Shown here: positions 7,928-50,249 of the stretch, in pieces
Numbering within the stretch: the stretch's first letter is position 1
Layout: the number at the start of each line of letters is the position of its first letter
IMG/VR virus record: IMGVR_UViG_3300020118_000164
Location: 1-64,000 of that record
Source of the DNA: a virus
Reading direction: 5' to 3' (one strand)
Length of the DNA stretch: 64,000 nucleotides
Made by a program: the position numbers and the translations under genes
Notes under the pieces: generated by a model
Told to the model about the DNA's origin: nothing
What the model saw: only the letters and a program-made list of their open reading frames with translations
Database searches by the model: none

Positions 7928-7957
7928 TACCATAGCATGGTGCGCCAGGGCTGTCAA
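7928..7957 (-). promoter_or_regulatory. promoter with operator A
   Basis: Minus strand TTGACA-N17-TATGGT; CACCATGCTATGGTA. Confidence 0.85.
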
Positions 7958-11152: not shown

Positions 11153-11237
11153 CACCATAGCATGGTGCTGGAGCGGGGTCAAGCGGTGCGGTCGGGATTC
11201 TCGGAGTTGACGGCGCGGAAGGCACCATGCTATGGTG
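11153..11237. promoter_or_regulatory. divergent promoter pair, each carrying operator A
   Basis: Minus: TTGACC(11182)-N17-TATGGT, operator 11153-11167. Plus: TTGACG(11207)-N18-TATGGT, operator 11223-11237. Coincides with the strand switch of gene blocks. Confidence 0.85.
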
Positions 11238-13530: not shown

Positions 13531-14094
13531 GTGACCGCTCCCACTCCCTCCGCCCTCACCAAGAGGGAACTCGACCGTCGCGGATGGCCCTGGGCGCAGG
13601 GGGAGTATTTTCAGGTGATGGGCGATCCGAAAGATGCCGGCAGGCTCGCCGCGTTCCTGGAGTGCGTCGCGATGATAGAGAGCCTGTCATCCTTCACCGC
13701 CGACGCTTTCACGGCTGACGTTCTGCGCGCGACGCTCGGAGATCTTCGCGGAGCCGTGCTCACTCGTGCGGCCGCGATCAAGCAACGCGAGGGACCGCCC
13801 GGCGTCAAGAAGGATTTGTTCGGCTACGGGGACTTGTTGGTGCTCGACGGCCACCCCGGCTCGCTCCTGATCCAATGCACCTCGGCCTCCAACGCGAGCG
13901 CCAGGGTCGCCAAGATCAAGAGCCTGGACGTGGCCCGCGAGTGGCTCTCCGCGGGCAATCGAATCCAGGTCTGGGGCTGGGCAGAGCGACCGGTAGATGA
14001 GGCGCAGGCGTTGCTCCTGCGTGGCGCCCGGAAGCCCCGGATGTCCTGGCAGGTCCGGATCGTTCCCGTCACCATGGACATGTTCGGCGCTTGA
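13531..14094 (+). CDS. putative PD-(D/E)XK-fold nuclease/resolvase
   Basis: DLFGYGDLL..IQCTS..N..AR..KI..IQVWGW pattern seen in phage proteins. Confidence 0.5.
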   Translation: MTAPTPSALTKRELDRRGWPWAQGEYFQVMGDPKDAGRLAAFLECVAMIESLSSFTADAFTADVLRATLGDLRGAVLTRAAAIKQREGPPGVKKDLFGYGDLLVLDGHPGSLLIQCTSASNASARVAKIKSLDVAREWLSAGNRIQVWGWAERPVDEAQALLLRGARKPRMSWQVRIVPVTMDMFGA

Positions 14095-14120
14095 CGCTCC
14101 GCGCGCACCATGCTATGGTG
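14091..14120 (+). promoter_or_regulatory. promoter with operator A
   Basis: TTGACG-N17-TATGGT; operator 14106-14120. Confidence 0.85.
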
Positions 14121-20473: not shown

Positions 20474-20905
20474 ATGAGCATCTACGGGACGATCGGCGAG
20501 TTCCGCCTCCCCGTCCTCCTCTCCCCAGAGAAGGCGCAGGAGGTCGGGCTCGTGGCGCCTAATGAGCCGATCGGCCGCATGTGGGGGTCGGGCGATGATG
20601 AAGAGGGCGACGGGCGTCCCTGCCTAGAGACCTGGGTGCTCGTCCTGATCCAGTGTGTCCCGGCCCATATCCAGGACACCGGCCCCGGTTGGGATTTCCT
20701 TCCGCCGCCGGTCGAGGATACGGCCGACGGTCCCGCGCGTGCCATTCTCTTTGTCCGGGCCGTGGCCGGCAAGGGGACCGCCCGCAACCCCCAGGAGTAC
20801 CGCGAGACGCTCCTCTGCATGACCGGCGCGGAGTACCGCGCCGCCAGCTTCGGCGAAGTCCTGTGGCGCGTGCAGGAGGCCCTCGATACCGCACTCGGCC
20901 GTTGA
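20474..20905 (+). CDS. hypothetical protein
   Basis: Coupled ORF. Confidence 0.6.
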   Translation: MSIYGTIGEFRLPVLLSPEKAQEVGLVAPNEPIGRMWGSGDDEEGDGRPCLETWVLVLIQCVPAHIQDTGPGWDFLPPPVEDTADGPARAILFVRAVAGKGTARNPQEYRETLLCMTGAEYRAASFGEVLWRVQEALDTALGR

Positions 20906-20931
20906 CGGCGGCGGCGCACCATGCTATGGTG
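20902..20931 (+). promoter_or_regulatory. promoter with operator A; leaderless ATG at 20937
   Basis: TTGACG-N17-TATGGT-N6-ATG; operator 20917-20931. Confidence 0.85.
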
Positions 20932-32055: not shown

Positions 32056-32376
32056 TGCCGGGTAGAACGCGCGGTAGCTGCCGATTTGAGACCTACTACC
32101 AGGTCCAGGTGCGGGATGAGATGAGCGCCGCATGGAAGACCGTCAAGGGCAACCACGCGACTGAGAAGGCGGCTCACGCCGCCGCGCCGGCCGGGAAGTA
32201 CCGGGTCGCCACGGTCTCTGAAGCGGGGCGCTCCTACTCCCCGATCCAGAATCGCTAGGCCGACCAATTGCGCGTGCGAGGGAGATCTTGATGGGAGGCT
32301 AGATTTCCCCTCTTGACTCACCCCTCGCCGTTGCTATAGCTTTTCCTCCTGCGCTACCCGTGCAACAGGAGGGGAG

Positions 32377-32616
32377 ATGGCTGACCTTTTGGAGTTGTCG
32401 CGCAACCTTGACCCTGAGCAGTCCGTCCGCGGAGTCCCTCTTGGTTCCGGTGTGGCAGGACGGAACCTCGCCGTCATCGAGGAGATGCGATCCCGCGGCT
32501 TCACCTGGAGAGAGATCTGCAAGTTCCTGTCCGACCATGGCGAGTATGACGGCCGACCAGATGGCCTCCGCACCTGCTACGTCGCCTACAAAAAGGCTGC
32601 CGGGCGGAGAGGGTAG
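32377..32616 (+). CDS. small helical protein, possible regulator
   Basis: First gene after a TTGACT promoter at 32313; AGGAGG RBS. Confidence 0.5.
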   Translation: MADLLELSRNLDPEQSVRGVPLGSGVAGRNLAVIEEMRSRGFTWREICKFLSDHGEYDGRPDGLRTCYVAYKKAAGRRG

Positions 32617-32626
32617 CAACGCGCCT

Positions 32627-33610
32627 ATGAGCCGTATGCGCACGCGCCTGATTGAGCCCGGATTCTTCCAAAATGAAGACCTCGCCGCCCTACCGCCGTT
32701 CGGTCGTCTGCTGTTCGCGGGATTGTGGTGTCTCGCGGATCGGGAGGGCCGACTAGACGACAGACCGCCCAAAATCCGGGCGCTTCTCTTCGCCTATGAG
32801 GAGGTTCCGGTTGATGAACTCCTCGGCGGGTTAGCCAAGGCTGGCCTTGTGACGCGGTATGAGGTAGGCGGCCGCAAGTACCTGCAAGTCAATAAGTTCC
32901 TCGAACATCAGAAGCCTCATCCCCGCGAAGAAAAATCCATCATCCCTTCCCCAGGGTTAGCCAAGGTTAGCCCTGGGCCAACCTTGGACACGCCAAGGCG
33001 CGTGGTATTAGTTTCTGTTTCTAATTCTGTTTCTACTTCTTCTGCGTCGAGCCCTGCGGACTCGACGCCGGAACCGGAACTCTTCAAGCTCGATACGCCG
33101 CCGATCCCAGAGCCGGTGCTCGTGTTCCCGGCGAAGGGAGAGCCGAAGCAATGGCACCTCACCCCTGCGAAGCTCGCCGAATGGCAGGGGACCTTCCCCG
33201 ATCTCGATGTCCTCGGCACATGTCGGAAAGCCCTCCAGTGGTTGCGTGACAACCCACAACACGGGAAGACCGCCAAGGGTATGACGAAGTACATTGGGGG
33301 TTTTTTGGGGCGCGAGCAGAACGACCCGCGTAGCGCCCTCCGGCGGAACGTCTCACGCGGCAACGGCAACGGCAATGGTAGGGCTCACGAGCTCACCGCC
33401 GAGGAACAGGGCCGGTGGTACAAGCTCATCAAGCGGGGCCGGGTTGGCCTTGCTGACGGCCATGTGCCGGGGTGGCGCGACTGGCTCGATGAGCTAGAGA
33501 CGGTGCCGCAATCGGCGGGCGCCGATGCGCTCTCGGCGAAGCTCGACGAGCTGTTCGCCCGGAAGCATGCGGCCGAGACGGCCCACGGTTCCGAGGTCGC
33601 GCATGGCTAA
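32627..33610 (+). CDS. phage replication initiator protein
   Basis: R.RLIEPGFF.NEDL..L....RLLF.GLWCLADREGRL N-terminal domain; immediately upstream of DnaB. Confidence 0.8.
   Translation: MSRMRTRLIEPGFFQNEDLAALPPFGRLLFAGLWCLADREGRLDDRPPKIRALLFAYEEVPVDELLGGLAKAGLVTRYEVGGRKYLQVNKFLEHQKPHPREEKSIIPSPGLAKVSPGPTLDTPRRVVLVSVSNSVSTSSASSPADSTPEPELFKLDTPPIPEPVLVFPAKGEPKQWHLTPAKLAEWQGTFPDLDVLGTCRKALQWLRDNPQHGKTAKGMTKYIGGFLGREQNDPRSALRRNVSRGNGNGNGRAHELTAEEQGRWYKLIKRGRVGLADGHVPGWRDWLDELETVPQSAGADALSAKLDELFARKHAAETAHGSEVAHG
32951..33043. repeat. candidate replication origin: iteron-like repeats plus AT-rich tract
   Basis: CCAGGG/CCAAGG/CCCTGG/CCTTGG/CCAAGG at 10-11 bp spacing, then GTTTCT-like hexamer repeats (33011-33043), inside the initiator gene. 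Confidence 0.55.
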
Positions 33611-34934
33611 CGCATCCATCGTCCTCACCCTTCCGCAGCCAAGCCTGCCGGAACACGAGAACTCCCTCCTCGGCGCGCTCCTCCTGTTCCCGGAGAAGCT
33701 GAAAGAGGTGGAGGATCTCTACCCGTCCGACTTCTACGGCGAGCGTACACGCATACTGTTCCAAGCGATGCTAGACCTCGATGCAGACGGCGAGCCGATA
33801 GACCATCTCTCACTCAAAGACCGAATCGGCGAGGAGGTCTGGGAGCGGATCGGCGGGTACGCATGGCTTTGTGCTCTCGATCTCGACATGCCTGACGTAG
33901 GAAATCTGCCGGTTTGGTCGAAGGCGATTAAGACAGCCTCGGCGGCGCGAGCGGCGGCGTGCGTCGCACTTGATCTCGCGCGGCAGGTAGGAGGTAAGGG
34001 ATCGCTCGCGGACGCCCTCGGGCTCGCGGCGGAGCGGCTCGAAGTCTTGCGCGATGGACTTCCTGGCGCGATCCGCACCTGGTCATCACTCGGGCATTCC
34101 CCATCCGAGGAAGAGTTACTCGCCCCGTACACCCCCGAGCAGCTCGCGTTACAGGTCAAGACGGGACTGCCAACCGTAGACGCCGCCGGCCTCATGGGGC
34201 CTTCGACCTTGAACCTCATCGTCGCGAGGACGGGTGTCGGCAAGACGGCGCTCGCCCTCCAGATCGCCGCGCACAACGCAATCACGCGGCGCCTCCCTGG
34301 CGGATATGTCTCGCTTGAGATGCCGAAGAAGCGCCTAATACAACGCATCATTGCGGCTCGTGCGCGGGTGGACTACACGCACATTCACACACATCGCCTG
34401 AGTGACTATGAACGCGCGGACTGTTCACGGGCCTACCAGGAGATTCAAGGCGCACCACTATTCTTCGATGACAGACCATCGCTGACGGCGGGACAGATTG
34501 GACTCGCGATTCGGCGCCTCAAGATCGAGCACCGAGACGCGGCGTGGTTTGTGGTGGACTACCTGAGCTTGATTGAGTTGGAGCGGCAGGATGTTCGCCG
34601 GCCGGACCTGCCACTAGCGAAGATCGCGGAGGGGTTAGCGAGTTTGGCGCGGCAGCTAGAGATCCACATTACGCTATTGTGCCAGCTCTCGCGGCGCGGC
34701 GAGCAGGAGAATCGCGAGCCGATCTTGACGGACATCAGCGACAGCGATGGACTCGCGAAGCCCGCCAACAGCGTGCTAGCCGTACATCGCGGCTATCGCC
34801 AGGATGAGCCGGGCGTGAGGGATGACATCGGTTACGTCACGACGCTCAAGCACAGAGATGGACCGCAGCCGAGAGTCAAGATTCGGTTCCTTGGCGCCTT
34901 CCAGACATTCCGCGAGGAGACGGGAGATCGATGA
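33603..34934 (+). CDS. dnaB: DnaB-like replicative helicase
   Basis: E.SLLGALL, DFY, ARTGVGKTA, SLEM, VVDYL, LCQLSR, KHRDG. Confidence 0.92.
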   Translation: MANASIVLTLPQPSLPEHENSLLGALLLFPEKLKEVEDLYPSDFYGERTRILFQAMLDLDADGEPIDHLSLKDRIGEEVWERIGGYAWLCALDLDMPDVGNLPVWSKAIKTASAARAAACVALDLARQVGGKGSLADALGLAAERLEVLRDGLPGAIRTWSSLGHSPSEEELLAPYTPEQLALQVKTGLPTVDAAGLMGPSTLNLIVARTGVGKTALALQIAAHNAITRRLPGGYVSLEMPKKRLIQRIIAARARVDYTHIHTHRLSDYERADCSRAYQEIQGAPLFFDDRPSLTAGQIGLAIRRLKIEHRDAAWFVVDYLSLIELERQDVRRPDLPLAKIAEGLASLARQLEIHITLLCQLSRRGEQENREPILTDISDSDGLAKPANSVLAVHRGYRQDEPGVRDDIGYVTTLKHRDGPQPRVKIRFLGAFQTFREETGDR

Positions 34935-35438: not shown

Positions 35439-35467
35439 TTGACGCGCACCCTAGCATGGTGTACGCT
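35439..35467 (+). promoter_or_regulatory. promoter with operator A (one mismatch) in the spacer
   Basis: TTGACG-N17-TACGCT; CACCCTAGCATGGTG at 35447-35461. Confidence 0.75.
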
Positions 35468-35765
35468 TTCCCCCGCGATGAGAAATTCAAGCCTCTACCT
35501 CGGCGCCCCCGCAGCGATCTCTGCGGCGGATAGGGGCTCTCGCGTGCAGTGCGAGCGGGGACGCCGAGGAGAGGTGTCAGCGTGAGGCGCAACCGGGTAT
35601 CCAACCACGGCGGCGCACGCCCCGCCCCGCGTAGGAAGAGCGGGGCGGGGCCGCGTCGGTACCCGCGGGGGCTTCGCGAACGGAATGAGACACTCCGATT
35701 CGCGCGGTTAGCGGCGCGGCTCAAAAGGGTGAGCGCGACCGCCTGCGACGCGTCGAAGTCTGCGG

Positions 35766-36074
35766 GTGAGTGAACGCATGACTTCTTTCGGCCAGGTCAA
35801 CACGGCCCTGCTCGTCACGGGCACGCACCGTGACGGCTCGGCCCGGATCGAAGTCCGGCAATCCATCGCGAGCCGAGATCTCCACCCCGGCCAGCGGTTC
35901 ACGAGCGCGCAGGGCACGGAGTACGCCGTCGCCTTGGATGGTTCTGTGCGCCGGGTCATGCGCCGTCGAGCCCGCGGGGCGTCGGCTCGGCAGATAAGAA
36001 TCGCAACCAAGGCGCGGCGCGAGGCGGCGCGGATCGCCGCGAAGAACCAAGAAAGGGTGAGCGCTAATGGCTAA
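35766..36074 (+). CDS. hypothetical basic protein
   Basis: Coupled ORF. Confidence 0.55.
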   Translation: MSERMTSFGQVNTALLVTGTHRDGSARIEVRQSIASRDLHPGQRFTSAQGTEYAVALDGSVRRVMRRRARGASARQIRIATKARREAARIAAKNQERVSANG

Positions 36075-36401: not shown

Positions 36402-36833
36402 ATGATGCCGAAACACAAACACGTCCACGTTCACTACCATGAACACGGCGGCGGCGAGATTCGAGACAAGCTCGACCTCATCCTCGCCAAATTGACCAAG
36501 GAGGATGAAGTCATGAGCGCCCATTCCGACGCCCTCGCCGCCCTCGAATCGATCGCCCAGAAGCTAGAGGGTGACCTCGGCTTGTCGATCGCGGAGAAGC
36601 AGTCCCTCCAGTCCCAGAAGGACGACCTCGCCGCACAGCTCGCCGCCGCGAAGGCGGAGGACGACACCGAGGCCATCCAAGCGCTGAGCACGCAGCTCCA
36701 GGCGCTCGACGCGCAGCTCGCCCCGGCGCCGGCGCCGGCCCCCGCGCCTGAGCCAGTCCCGGCGACCCCGGCCGCGACCAACCCCGACGGCACCGCGGTC
36801 GTCACGACCGATCAGCCGCCACCGACCGCGTAG
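36402..36833 (+). CDS. coiled-coil protein with His-rich N-terminus and Pro/Ala tail
   Basis: HKHVHVHYHEH; PAPAPAPAP tail. Confidence 0.65.
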   Translation: MMPKHKHVHVHYHEHGGGEIRDKLDLILAKLTKEDEVMSAHSDALAALESIAQKLEGDLGLSIAEKQSLQSQKDDLAAQLAAAKAEDDTEAIQALSTQLQALDAQLAPAPAPAPAPEPVPATPAATNPDGTAVVTTDQPPPTA

Positions 36834-36844
36834 GCTCGCGCGCC

Positions 36845-37125
36845 ATGAGTTGGAGCATCAACATCATCGGCAAGCCTAGCGCGGTTGCGGCCGAGCTTGC
36901 GAAGCACGCTGAGAGCCTTTCCGGCGAGTCACGCCGGGAGTTCGAGGCGGCTCTGCCATCGCTCGTCGCCCTCTGCCACGAGAACTTCGCGAACGGCGGC
37001 GGCTATACTGAGCCCGTCCTTGTCCTCGAAGCGAGCGGCCACGGCACGGCAGTGCCAGAGACGGCAAGGATCTCGCTCGGTCGCTTGCTGTCAACCTCCG
37101 CCCGATGTACGGCAAGGTCGTCTAG
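36845..37125 (+). pseudogene. ~91-aa phage protein frameshifted by a 5-nt duplication
   Basis: ACGGC-ACGGC at 37041-37050; removing one copy gives ...SGHGSARDGKDLARSLAVNLRPMYGKVV-TAG(37123-37125). Confidence 0.6.
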
Positions 37126-37127
37126 GC

Positions 37128-37790
37128 ATGAACTCTCCGACGCGGCAGTCACGCAGGGCGCAGGTGCCCGAAACCGCGGGGACTGCCGCGCCGGAGCTGT
37201 TCATCCCAACACGAAAGCGGCGAGAGGAGGACTCGCATACCGCGATTCCGCGGTCGGTGGAAGCCTGGCTAGTTTCATCTCCCGCGGCCCTCTCGGGGAC
37301 TACGGCACACACCCCGGACGGGCCGTGTCACAACCCGGAGTCTCGGCGGGGGAGTACCGAGACATGAATGGAGAAGGGGCCAAGGTGCCCCTCGCACCGG
37401 GGAGCCCGGCACCCTGCGAGTGCACGGCCCGAAGTACCGCAAGCGGACGGCGCGTGAGCCGAAGCGGTGGTCGTGCAGGGGCTTGGGGTGAACAGCCGAG
37501 CGGGCGGCGCCGCGGAGCGGGTGAAAGCCCCGCGTTTCCCTTCGATACACCGAAGGGCGCCGCGCATCAGTACCGGCGAGTCATCGGGGGCCGAGCAGCC
37601 ATCCTCTGGCGGGGCGCTCAGCTTGGGTTGTGCGAGGAGGGGATCGGGTACCTCGCCCAACCGACGACTCCGCGCCGCCAGGCCGGAGCGCAACTGCCCA
37701 CTGCCGCAGGACCGGCGCCGGACCCGACTCGGCGCCGGGCTTCATAATCCCCGCTTCGGGGGCGGTTTCACGGCGACCGTTAATTTGCCG
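37128..37790 (+). ncRNA. candidate large structured ncRNA (GOLLD/ROOL size class)
   Basis: More than ten stems across ~650 nt with no credible ORF; see finding. Confidence 0.6.
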
Positions 37791-38019
37791 CGTACTGAGG
37801 AGGCTCGCAAATGAATGCCAGGTTCAGGTTTGAGAATGAGGTCGGCGCCGATGTCTACGCAGGGGCGATCCCGATCGGCGACACCCTTCGCCCCGGAGAG
37901 TACGTAATGCTTCGGATCGATTGCGGGTTGGAGGATGAACACACCGAGACGATGGTTCCGATGCGCAAGGCAGAGGCCCGCGCACTCGCCAGCGCCATCA
38001 TGGGCGTGGCGGCGGAGCT

Positions 38020-47039: not shown

Positions 47040-48380
47040 ATGCGCACGAACACCTCCGCCGTCCAAGTCGCTGTCACTCATGAGGGAGCCAAGGCCGGGC
47101 ATCAGAAGCCGGTCGAGGCGCTTCTGCGTGCGGTCTCTACCTGCATGCTCTGGGAATCGACCTTCTACGAGTCCGGTTCCGAGATCGCCAAGAACATCGA
47201 ATCCCTCTGCGGCCAGGTGAGCGCGGAAGACTTGGCGGCTGTGGCCGTCGAGGCTCGCCAGCGGCTGAACCTCCGGCACGTCCCGCTGTTCCTGGTGCGC
47301 CAGCTCGCGAAGCTCCACCGCGGGCCGATCGTCGGTGACACCCTCGCGGCAGTCCTGCGCCGGCCGGACGAAGCGACGGAGTTCCTCGCGCTCTGGTGGA
47401 GGGATGGGCGCGGAGAGACCGTCAAGCTCTCCGCCCAGGTCAAGCGCGGCCTCCGTCTCGCCTTCTCGGGATGGGATGAGTACCGGCTCGCCAAGTACGC
47501 CGGGGCCGGCGACAAGATAAAACTCCGCGACGCTCTTTTTCTGAGCCATGCCAAGCCGAAGGATGACGAGCAGGCCGCGCTGTGGAAGCGGCTCATCTCT
47601 GGTGAGCTGACGCCGCCCGATACCTGGGAGGTCGCACTCTCTGCCGGCGCCGACAAGAAAGAAACATGGGAACGCCTTCTTCGGGAGCGCAAGCTCGGCT
47701 ATCAGGCGCTCCTGATGAACCTGCGGAACATGACCGATGCGGGAGCTGATCCGGCGCTCGTGCGGGAGGCGTTGCTCGACGGTCGCGGGAGTGAGCGGAT
47801 GTTCCCGTACCGCTTCTTGGCCGCGTCGCGGGTTGCCCCGCAGTACGCTGACGCCCTGAGTGAAGCCATGCTCAGTTCGCTCAGCGGTCATGAGAAGCTG
47901 CCGGGCGCCACCGTCCTGGTCGTGGACGTATCGGGATCGATGGAAAGCCCCCTCTCCGCCAAGAGCGCGATGCATCGCCTCGACGCGGCCGGCTGCCTTG
48001 CCGTGATCCTGCGCGAGGTCAGCGAGTCGCTGCGCGTGTTCTCGTTCAGCAACGCAGTCGTCGAGGTCGCCAACCATCGCGGATTGGCGCTGAGTCACGC
48101 GGTCACGGAGAGCCAGCGTCACGGCGGCACCGAGTTGCGCGCCGCGCTTGAGGCCGTGCGCAAGGCGATCCCGAACGCGCATCGCGTCATCGTCATCACC
48201 GACGAGCAGTCGCAGGATGGCATCGCCCCGGCCTGGGCGCCGCACTCTTACCTAATCAACGTCGCGCCGTACAAGCCCGGACTCGAGACCTCCCAGGGCT
48301 GGACGCGCATCAACGGATGGTCAGACCGGGTCGTGGACTGGATTCTGATGGAGGAGGCGACCGCGCCCGATGGGCAGTGA
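47040..48380 (+). CDS. rsr: Ro60/Rsr-like TROVE-domain RNA-binding protein with vWA domain
   Basis: THEGA, LWESTFYESG, EAR..NLRHVPL, YRLAKY, LSHAKP, TWEVALS, ALLMNLRN, PYRF, VDVSGSM (MIDAS), GGT, VITDEQ. Confidence 0.93.
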   Translation: MRTNTSAVQVAVTHEGAKAGHQKPVEALLRAVSTCMLWESTFYESGSEIAKNIESLCGQVSAEDLAAVAVEARQRLNLRHVPLFLVRQLAKLHRGPIVGDTLAAVLRRPDEATEFLALWWRDGRGETVKLSAQVKRGLRLAFSGWDEYRLAKYAGAGDKIKLRDALFLSHAKPKDDEQAALWKRLISGELTPPDTWEVALSAGADKKETWERLLRERKLGYQALLMNLRNMTDAGADPALVREALLDGRGSERMFPYRFLAASRVAPQYADALSEAMLSSLSGHEKLPGATVLVVDVSGSMESPLSAKSAMHRLDAAGCLAVILREVSESLRVFSFSNAVVEVANHRGLALSHAVTESQRHGGTELRAALEAVRKAIPNAHRVIVITDEQSQDGIAPAWAPHSYLINVAPYKPGLETSQGWTRINGWSDRVVDWILMEEATAPDGQ

Positions 48381-50214
48381 GTCAACCTCCGCCGCACCCG
48401 CTGACCGCCTAACCCTTGACCAGCTAGTCGCGGCCATCCGCCGTCTACCTCCCGGCCTGGAACAGGCGCGGGCGGTCGCGGCGTTCGCCAAGAGGTATGA
48501 GGGGCGGACAAGCGCCGGCCGAGATCCGGCGCAGCGCCGGAAGTATGCGGGCGATCCGTGGGCCTACATCGCGGACGTGTTCGGCTATCCAGCGACGCCT
48601 CAGCAGGAAGAGGCGCTCGCGCTCATGGAGGCGCATGACCGCGTCCTTTTGCCCTCCGCCAATGACCTCGGGAAGACCTGGCTTTTGGGAGAATACGCAG
48701 TTTACTACATGGACGCTGTTGGTGCGCAGCTCGATGAAGATACGGGCGGCGAGCAGGGCGCCCGCGTGCTCCTCCCCGGCCCGGATCACCCGACCATCCG
48801 TGCCACGATCTACAACAAAATGCTCCTGATGGCCGAGCGGGCAGAGGCCCGCGGCTTCAAGATGCCAGGCAGGCGGTCTCTCGATTCCGTGCTCTGGCGC
48901 GTGCGTCCGGAGTGGGAGGTCGAGGCGTTCTCCCCGCCGCGGCAAGTTGGCCAGGAGGTCGCCCATACCGCGAGCGGCCGGCACCACAGGAACCAAATCG
49001 CGCTCATCGAGGAGGGGCAGGGCGTATCGGAGCGCGTCTGGAGAGCGGCCGAGGGCATGTGCGCCTCCCGCGGAAACAAGATCATCAGCTCGTTCAACCC
49101 CACAGAGGCGAGCGGCCCGACCTACCAGCGTTCCCGCCGGAACTATATCGTCATGCACTGGGATGCCTTCGAGCACCCGAATGTCGTGCAACGGAAGATC
49201 GTCATAGAGGGCGCCGTGGACTATCTGGTGACGGATGACCGGGTGAGGGAGTGCCGTGACCGCGGTCCTTATCCTGGCACACAGCCGGACGCGACCTACG
49301 GTGACTTCATTTACGCTGCCCCGACGGTTGAGGAGACGCGTGCCGGCCTCGTAGAGCGAGGCCCGCGAGAGGATGGCATCCTGGGCCATCCCGACGCGAC
49401 GCCGCACGTCTGGAGGCCCACGGGGGCTTTCGAGGCCCAAGTCCGCGGGCGCTGGCCTAAGTCGTCGGACACCGGCCTGTTCAACCCTGGCGCATGGGAT
49501 GCGGGTGTCGAGCGCTGGCTCTCTGGACAAGATCCGGTCATCCTCCCGGACCGTATCGGCGTGGACGCGGCCAGAGAGGGTGGCGACGACTGCTGCTACT
49601 GTCCGGCATGGGGAGAGACCTCGGCCGCGCTCCTCCGCGCCCATCACCAGGCGCAGAAGGATGGTGACTCTCGGCTCCTGGAGGAACTCCGCATCTCGCG
49701 CCGAGTTCGCGTCGGGGAGATCCGCGTCGCTCCCAAGGGCGATGGGCCGCTCGTGGCAGAGGCCATCTTCAAGGTCTACCCATCCTCGCCCTGGGTAGTC
49801 GATGAGGGGAGCGTAGGCACCTCCGTCCTCGACCACGCCGCGAAGGTCTTAGGCGCGTCGGCCTCCGGCATCAGCTTCTCCGGCAAGCGTCCAGACCGCA
49901 TCCCCGGCGAGCGGCTGGTCTACAACATGCGCGCCTCGCTCTACGTCCGCGCCGCGCTGCTCTTGGATCTCGGCCTCGCCGATCCCCCGGATGATCCTCT
50001 CCTACGGGAAGAGGTGCTTGCCCACGAGATCGTCAAGTGGGAGGCCGTAACGGTCAAGGAGTCTCCCGGCGGCAAGAAAGAGACCAAGTATGCCGCCCGC
50101 GTCCTGGAAAAAGCCGAGGTCAAGAAGAAGATCGGCCGCTCCCCAGACCGGGCGGACGCGTTCGTGCTGGCGCTCGCTCCGGCGAAGGCTAAGGGTCGCG
50201 GGTTGATCTGGTGA
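48370..50214 (+). CDS. terL: terminase large subunit
   Basis: SANDLGKT Walker A, LIEEGQG Walker B, FNP, IGVDAAREGGD nuclease motif, RSPDRADA. Confidence 0.88.
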   Translation: MGSESTSAAPADRLTLDQLVAAIRRLPPGLEQARAVAAFAKRYEGRTSAGRDPAQRRKYAGDPWAYIADVFGYPATPQQEEALALMEAHDRVLLPSANDLGKTWLLGEYAVYYMDAVGAQLDEDTGGEQGARVLLPGPDHPTIRATIYNKMLLMAERAEARGFKMPGRRSLDSVLWRVRPEWEVEAFSPPRQVGQEVAHTASGRHHRNQIALIEEGQGVSERVWRAAEGMCASRGNKIISSFNPTEASGPTYQRSRRNYIVMHWDAFEHPNVVQRKIVIEGAVDYLVTDDRVRECRDRGPYPGTQPDATYGDFIYAAPTVEETRAGLVERGPREDGILGHPDATPHVWRPTGAFEAQVRGRWPKSSDTGLFNPGAWDAGVERWLSGQDPVILPDRIGVDAAREGGDDCCYCPAWGETSAALLRAHHQAQKDGDSRLLEELRISRRVRVGEIRVAPKGDGPLVAEAIFKVYPSSPWVVDEGSVGTSVLDHAAKVLGASASGISFSGKRPDRIPGERLVYNMRASLYVRAALLLDLGLADPPDDPLLREEVLAHEIVKWEAVTVKESPGGKKETKYAARVLEKAEVKKKIGRSPDRADAFVLALAPAKAKGRGLIW

Positions 50215-50218
50215 GGCG

Positions 50219-50249
50219 TTGACCAGGTACCGCGCACCATGCTATGGTT
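50219..50249 (+). promoter_or_regulatory. promoter with operator A
   Basis: TTGACC-N18-TATGGT-N7-ATG(50256); operator 50235-50249. Confidence 0.8.

Follow-up and report, generated by a model that had tools for sequence, protein, structure and literature searches.

Phages and prophages carry large ornate RNAs of several hundred nucleotides, among them GOLLD (RF01998) and ROOL (RF03087), which in phage genomes are usually placed beside tRNA genes. Phage polycistronic mRNAs also carry intercistronic hairpins that serve in processing or stabilisation, such as the RNase III sites of the T7 early mRNA, and T7-type processing sites are single hairpins in short gaps. RNA elements of processive antitermination are exemplified by nut boxB of phage lambda and put of HK022. 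The VIPR vrRNAs are built from 9–16 tandem YNNGG (GGY/NN) units (bioRxiv 10.64898/2026.04.26.720920).

Here, we analyse an untranslated stretch in an uncultured soil phage, whose record of 93,367 bp, seen in soil metagenomes, carries direct terminal repeats and is rated complete; the window, meaning the whole stretch of DNA that was analysed, comprises its first 64 kb. The spacer occupies 37126–37810 on the + strand, 2.2 kb downstream of a DnaB-type helicase gene (33525–34934), and its G+C content of 0.66–0.72 lies above the genome mean of ~65%. A GAGGAGG ribosome-binding site and the next gene, of 70 aa, follow at 37797–38023 (+), and this gene is the first in a run of overlapping or tightly spaced genes 3' of the spacer.

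Being several hundred nucleotides long, non-coding and phage-borne, the spacer resembles GOLLD and ROOL, and a preliminary description of the sequence had suggested a GOLLD-like or new large RNA. The GOLLD/ROOL likeness is not supported on closer comparison: the spacer differs from both in having no covariance-model match, no tRNA neighbour, no promoter of its own and no family members that could be found, and in being structured above chance over only about half of its length. A cmscan search of the whole window against Rfam 15 at gathering thresholds gave 0 matches, with none to GOLLD, ROOL, group I/II introns, RNase P RNA, tmRNA, HEARO, OLE or the other 4227 Rfam families. A permissive scan of 36700–38000 (E ≤ 10), in which GOLLD and ROOL were likewise absent, returned only noise from miRNA and snoRNA models: the best match, mir-3622, scored 23.6 bits where the cut-off is 78, and a fragment of RNaseP-T scored 13.6 bits where it is 60. 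ARAGORN detected neither tRNA nor tmRNA in the 64-kb window, in line with the preliminary remark that tmRNA, RNase P and tRNA signatures are lacking, and it places the only two tRNAs of the genome (90326–90481, one of them also called by Rfam) ~53 kb from the spacer.

The resemblance to T7 RNase III sites lies in a ~22-bp interrupted hairpin (H1, described below) situated right after a stop codon, within an operon and between gene blocks; it differs in that ~600 more untranslated nucleotides follow H1. Two copies of a small hairpin in a long operon without internal promoters recall lambda nut boxB and HK022 put, but there is no sequence likeness to these elements, no recognisable N- or Q-type gene, and the downstream terminator-like sites are weak and unenriched. 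With VIPR vrRNAs the spacer shares its nature as a phage-borne non-coding stretch after small genes; however, it has no period-5 GGY/NN tract, its best 45-nt window holding 2 (+) or 3 (−) of 9 units in register, and this identity was rejected. Windows reaching 7/9 YNNGG units occur nowhere in the genome, a search of the 93-kb genome for DUF6847 (PF20935) came back empty even at E ≤ 1, and the proteins neighbouring the spacer show no DUF6847-type Pfam or NCBIfam match. Three further element types were also rejected: a retron or DGR, the genome having no reverse transcriptase; an attP site, the genome having no integrase; and an IS-type element, the 'transposase' PHROG match at 44153 being a metallopeptidase by Pfam. 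The genome holds no second copy of the spacer.

The spacer and the gene ahead of it

An ORF of 300 aa had been called across the spacer. Compared with 1.84 billion representative proteins, it gave 217 matches, nearly all of them ~80–130 aa long; they cover residues 1 to ~70 only, with the single exception of P0137, a weak alignment (30% identity, E 7e-6) that reaches residue 149. The matches define a widespread family of ~90-aa phage proteins, which we call MSWS after its first residues. Members start with MSWS...IGKP and end with ...EASGxGxARGxxQxxRxxxVxxxxxxxxLV. Several other phages have in-frame fusions, in which MSWS runs on into a membrane-like or low-complexity segment downstream (P0030, P0058, P0115, P0119 and P0162).

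Of the 300-aa ORF, only the N-terminal 67 codons are genuine; they belong to the MSWS gene (36845–37045, +), with G+C at the three codon positions (GC1/2/3) of 0.66/0.49/0.81. The C-terminal 26 codons follow in the −1 frame (37045–37125, +; GC1/2/3 0.67/0.44/0.78), end with the stop codon TAG at 37123–37125, and match the family member P0029 with 48% identity over 25 aa (BLASTP, E=6e-7). At the frameshift site the sequence reads CACGG-CACGG in tandem (37040–37049, +); a slippery heptamer is absent there, and we infer that a 5-nt CACGG duplication caused the shift. Contigs from two other soil studies contain the identical frameshifted sequence, bringing the number of soil data sets to three, so the frameshift is not an assembly error of this record. 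Judged by its homologues, the real gene upstream of the spacer is a frameshifted MSWS family member of ~93 aa, which bears out the upstream frameshift proposed in the preliminary description.

Past this gene, the periodicity of GC by codon position vanishes, from about 37100 to 37800. In the frame of the 300-aa ORF, GC1/2/3 values are 0.67/0.67/0.66 for 37046–37363 and 0.74/0.72/0.69 for 37364–37747, against a mean of 0.66/0.51/0.79 for genes. Log-odds of codon usage, modelled on 45 confident genes from the phage's own genome, come to at most 0.03 bits per codon in every frame of 37050–37800, against +0.1 to +0.55 in the flanking genes. Pfam and PHROG returned no match for any ORF of the spacer region on either strand, even at E ≤ 1. 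Residues 95–300 of the 300-aa ORF have no homologue among the 1.84 billion proteins apart from the weak P0137 alignment, and when residues 90–300 were compared with a 5.8-billion protein set (in the size ranges 165–525 aa and 30–164 aa), only the query itself was returned. Stop triplets are scarce across all frames of the spacer region (8 in 663 nt), so that by our estimate an open frame of 300 codons is unsurprising. The ~685 nt of 37126–37810 are a real, untranslated spacer within the operon, as codon scores, flat GC by position and the lack of protein-family matches show, and the 300-aa ORF over it is a spurious gene call; the preliminary description had also regarded the stretch as non-coding.

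Folding energy and individual structures

Folded as a whole, the 663 nt reach −336.8 kcal/mol on the + strand (z=−2.05), a stability equalled by 3/70 dinucleotide shuffles, and −346.1 kcal/mol on the − strand (z=−2.91), equalled by 0/70. Seven same-length coding windows, folded on both strands as controls, gave z between −0.9 and +1.4. The shuffling comparison that the preliminary description had proposed thus places the folding energy of the spacer below that of dinucleotide shuffles, modestly, and it is also below that of the coding controls.

Every stem and motif quoted in the preliminary description was recovered in its place by sequence, repeat and fold checks, but its picture of a stretch tiled with stems applies to part of the spacer only. 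Among unbiased 120-nt windows, the folding excess is restricted to 37120–37239 (z=−3.2 on the + strand, −5.4 on the − strand) and 37320–37439 (z=−2.0 and −3.3), and all remaining windows of the spacer lie between −1.7 and +1.2. The ~350 nt from 37440 to 37790 fold like shuffled, random sequence of ~70% G+C, and no 220-nt window of the spacer is an outlier from the genome's energy-versus-GC trend. On the + strand the ensemble is diffuse and poorly defined, whereas the fold of the − strand is better defined. Half of the length being no better than shuffles and the + strand ensemble being diffuse, these data argue against a single dense, ornate, full-length fold.

The first of the two significant structures, H1 (37128–37204), found by folding and by an inverted-repeat scan, is an interrupted hairpin of ~22 bp; it begins 2 nt past the MSWS stop codon and is topped by a branched tip of 30 nt. 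Its energy is −46.4 kcal/mol (z=−4.5) on the + strand and −52.4 kcal/mol (z=−5.5) on the − strand, and it ranks as the best non-overlapping inverted repeat, or strongest true hairpin, within the 64-kb window. The second, D2 (37319–37431), is a 113-nt four-way junction in which a 9-bp helix closes over three hairpins (dG −58.1, z=−2.8 on the + strand; −64.8, z=−4.3 on the − strand). H1 and D2 each contain one copy of the hairpin GGGC-NNAGGU-GCCC, which is found nowhere else in the genome: GGGC-GCAGGU-GCCC at the tip of H1 (37156–37169, +) and GGGC-CAAGGU-GCCC within D2 (37377–37390, +). Over 2 x 93 kb, the word GGGCNNAGGTGCCC has exactly two occurrences against 0.076 expected, each of them in the spacer, and the second hairpin copy belongs to a 27-nt direct repeat with 37156–37182. 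Both structures, and the repeated hairpin as well, go beyond what chance would give.

H1 and D2 are each ~6 kcal/mol more stable on the − strand, because G-U pairs there replace A-C mismatches of the + strand, so energy leaves the strand unsettled. A 13-bp long-range helix, detected as an inverted repeat and with a pair probability >0.8 on the + strand, joins 37196–37208 to 37484–37496; owing to its single G-U pair it is specific to that strand, and there it is in competition with H1 over the 3' arm of the latter.

The remaining stems are less distinctive. Two small hairpins at 37517–37557 (+), GCGGG-UGAAAGC-CCCGC followed by UUU, which is a terminator-like match, and CCCUUCG-AUACAC-CGAAGGG, reach z of only −1.5 and −2.1 with borders chosen to fit. 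A long interrupted hairpin, CUGGCGG...CCGCCAG (37606–37682, +), has z=−1.8 and −2.3 with fitted borders and is not significant in unbiased windows. A short GC hairpin followed by GGUUUC (37750–37770, +), 40 nt ahead of the next start codon, falls below the threshold of the terminator scan. As for terminators in general, H1 has no U-run, only UUU comes after those at 37252, 37517 and 37750, and we do not take terminator-like matches, at 16 against 9.7 +/- 3.0 in shuffles, as commoner than in shuffled sequence. The heptamer AGTACCG, singled out in the preliminary description, was given no weight and rejected as a binding motif: it is enriched genome-wide, its copies outside the spacer lie mostly in apparent coding stretches, and many of these have the context xAG-TAC-CGx, which would read as E/K-Y-R. 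In a variant strain the third AGTACCG copy of the spacer reads AATACCG.

Transcription context, relatives and strain variation

The phage has its own promoter family, the pattern TTGAC-N17-19-TANNNT occurring at 14 sites against 0.73 expected; pattern scanning places members at, for example, 7929–7957 (−), 11207–11236 (+), 14091–14119 (+), 20902–20930 (+), 35439–35467 (+), 42649–42677 (+) and 50219–50248 (+). The near-palindromic operator word CACCATGCTATGGT, which overlaps the −10 region in most family promoters, is present at 23 sites against 2.4 expected, and none of them lies between 35461 and 42276. It looks as though a single repressor/operator system governs many operons. The nearest promoter upstream of the spacer belongs to this family and reads TTGACG-N17-TACGCT, with an operator-like CACCCTAGCATGGTG (35439–35467, +). 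Between it and the next + strand promoter, at 42649, there are no others, and the intervening genes are all on the + strand and close or overlapping, which would make the spacer internal to a polycistronic + strand RNA. It is very probably transcribed on the + strand as part of such an RNA.

The 35439 promoter is followed by a leader of ~300 nt (35474–35767), which includes a GC hairpin of 12 uninterrupted base pairs (35619–35651). On either strand this leader ranks with the genome's most stable 220-nt windows (z about −2.2), and it has no Rfam match.

Searches for homologues covered collections without near-identical records of the phage. The DnaB-type helicase has a single relative of 97% identity, encoded on a JGI contig of 14.7 kb, while its second-best match is 31% identical; the same contig encodes P0177, a homologue of the 70-aa gene at 96% identity, and since it carries both genes it spans the position of the spacer. 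The putative large terminase (48370–50214) has no Pfam match, and neither tblastn against 50,697 phage genomes nor exact-peptide patterns in IMG/VR gave any match for it. By these comparisons the phage lineage is an orphan.

No homologue of the spacer was found with blastn ('distant') of 36800–38100 against the 50,697 phages, at the loci around the 70-aa gene, a 973-aa gene, DnaB and the putative terminase, or at 45 MSWS-gene loci from IMG/VR and JGI metagenomes (blastn, nhmmer, tblastx). Six degenerate 24-nt words of the spacer, scanned by way of a pseudo-protein translation in IMG/VR and 185,579 genomes (GTDB), gave no relatives, nor did a two-hairpin pattern scan of IMG/VR, and protein-database searches, both for spurious ORFs over related spacers and for cluster members, likewise yielded nothing for the spacer. 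The MSWS gene itself is carried by phages spanning 23–70% G+C; in the GC-rich ones the following gene directly adjoins it with no spacer between, so the spacer is not a conserved partner of the MSWS gene. As no relatives were found and the MSWS loci of GC-rich phages have no spacer, it appears specific to this lineage.

Scanning genome contigs for the H1 stem pattern produced 12 matches, which were judged unrelated, their flanks and loops differing from those of H1. Six of them share a similar flank and look like a REP-type repeat, in MAGs of Acetobacteraceae, other Alphaproteobacteria and Betaproteobacteria; this REP-like palindrome, TGCGAGGAGCGCAGCGACGCGGCAGTCCAGGG...CCCTGGACTGCCGCG, is common to the alpha- and betaproteobacterial MAGs and unrelated to the phage.

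Strain variation was read from contigs of 87–520 nt and covers only the parts that align. In two other soil studies (runs X2 and X3) the contigs carry an identical spacer sequence. A third run, X4, represents a divergent strain in which the flanking genes differ at 40/570 nt (~7%); of the changes listed there, about 62% affect third codon positions. In its spacer, 9/181 aligned nt differ, compared with an estimated ~13% for third positions of the flanking codons, and in two X4 contigs the alignment breaks off within the spacer (at ~37255 and ~37537). The comparison hints weakly that parts of the spacer are constrained, with a bias toward what aligns.

Explanations for the spacer

We tentatively prefer, at somewhat less than even confidence, to read the spacer as a lineage-specific RNA-level element, either cis-acting or processed from the mRNA, whose transcription, strand, processing and function we infer. 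The whole-region z values of −2.05 and −2.91, set against −0.9 to +1.4 in the 14 coding controls, favour this reading, as do the rank of H1 as the strongest hairpin in 64 kb, the significance of D2 and the confinement of the duplicated hairpin to these two structures. It also fits a non-coding stretch in a + strand unit, with the nearest + strand promoters at 35439 and 42649, and, weakly, a spacer that is identical in two other soil studies and present in the ~7% divergent strain. It is weakened by the lack of detected homologues, the ordinary folding of 37440–37790, the ill-defined + strand ensemble, the competition between H1 and the 13-bp helix, and the greater stability of H1 and D2 on the − strand; moreover, terminator-like matches are unenriched, the contigs of the divergent strain lose alignment within the spacer, and the spacer is not a conserved partner of the MSWS gene.

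Under this RNA-element reading, the 35439 promoter would drive the spacer together with the flanking small genes, and the informative part would be the first ~300 nt, where H1 and D2 each display the GGGC-NNAGGU-GCCC hairpin. The two structures might form a processing or stabilising site that parts upstream from downstream cistrons, or paired binding sites for an RNA-binding factor of the phage or host, and an RNA fragment could possibly be released from the operon mRNA. If the hairpin pair and junction are functional, they would be a further case of phages with private structured RNAs, in a lineage far from known phages, given a putative terminase with no detectable relative, and the duplicated hairpin would offer a concrete target for seeking an RNA-binding partner.

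A serious rival, which we consider less likely, is that the spacer has no function: it would derive from genes since lost or scrambled, or from an insertion of long ago, and be tolerated because this region is dispensable, with stems that arise by chance at 70% G+C. The adjoining MSWS gene is broken, its frameshift persisting in three soil data sets, the spacer is lineage-specific and thermodynamically ordinary over most of its length, and within it the alignment of X4 contigs breaks off. However, no frame shows a codon signal or protein similarity, so recent decay of a gene does not account for it; useless DNA is usually lost from phage genomes; the 64 kb contain no better hairpin than H1, and chance is a very unlikely source of the duplicated one; and the alignable parts are seemingly no less conserved than the coding flanks.

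It is improbable that the spacer is an autonomous ornate RNA of ~650 nt, a new class folded over its full length and comparable in kind to GOLLD and ROOL. Its size, non-coding nature and phage setting would fit, its G+C content is above the genome mean, the whole-length z is −2 to −3, and the small hairpin with UUU near the 3' end could mark the end of an RNA. The phage also invests in RNA biology, encoding a Ro60-type protein with TROVE and vWA domains by Pfam (47040–48380). Against this, there is no Rfam match even at E ≤ 10, the stretch has neither its own promoter nor a nearby tRNA, half of it shows no structure beyond that of shuffles, the ensemble is diffuse, and no relatives emerged from the IMG/VR and GTDB scans or the IMG/VR and JGI metagenome loci. 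The label 'large ornate RNA' is unwarranted on present evidence, being possible but unproven. Upstream of the Ro60-type gene, at 46808–47020, candidate Y-RNA-like units gave no Rfam match even at E ≤ 5.

A more speculative extension of the RNA-element reading, to which we likewise give little credence, is that processing of the operon transcript yields an orphan RNA that belongs to a new class and whose two identical hairpins dock a dedicated protein, forming a new phage ribonucleoprotein. One candidate for the protein is the phage's own RNA machinery, given the Ro60/TROVE gene 9 kb downstream.

Still less probable is a DNA-level element with H1 acting as a cruciform or DNA hairpin, for instance a palindrome bound by protein, or an initiation site of the replication or single-strand type; both strands give a stable H1 and D2, and the DnaB-type helicase gene lies 2.2 kb upstream, but a better origin candidate exists inside the initiator gene (32834–33036), and the genome has no integrase or reverse transcriptase. 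A replication origin in the spacer was rejected, the stretch being GC-rich (0.66–0.72) and free of iterons. In the replication-initiator gene (32360–33610), four iteron-like copies of GCCAAGGYTRGCC occupy 32834–32988 and an AT-rich tandem repeat (TTCTGTTTCTAA x2) follows at 33013–33036; together with an inverted repeat, they make 32834–33036 a candidate for a lambda-style origin within that gene.

That the spacer is coding after all, as the 300-aa fusion or as a 127-aa ORF (ATG 37364, GGGGGAG upstream) for a disordered basic protein, is highly improbable, for although 300 codons pass without a stop, the codon-position GC of 37530–37680 weakly resembles that of genes and both listed strain differences in the spacer (37291 and 37570) are, in our reading, third-position and synonymous, overall GC1/2/3 is flat, codon scores stay at or below 0.03, stops are rare in all frames, and residues 90–300 have no homologue among proteins of 30–525 aa, a database that does contain the neighbour genes of a close relative. 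As it stands, the practical value of the analysis is a correction of the record, in which a spurious 300-aa call gives way to a real, frameshifted gene of ~93 aa.

The preliminary description took the spacer for the longest stretch without a credible ORF. Outside the window, at 89265–91031 of the genome, a crude gene finder leaves ~1.7 kb with no called gene around tRNA-Thr (90326–90400) and tRNA-Pro (90404–90481), and this gap may hold further RNA genes.
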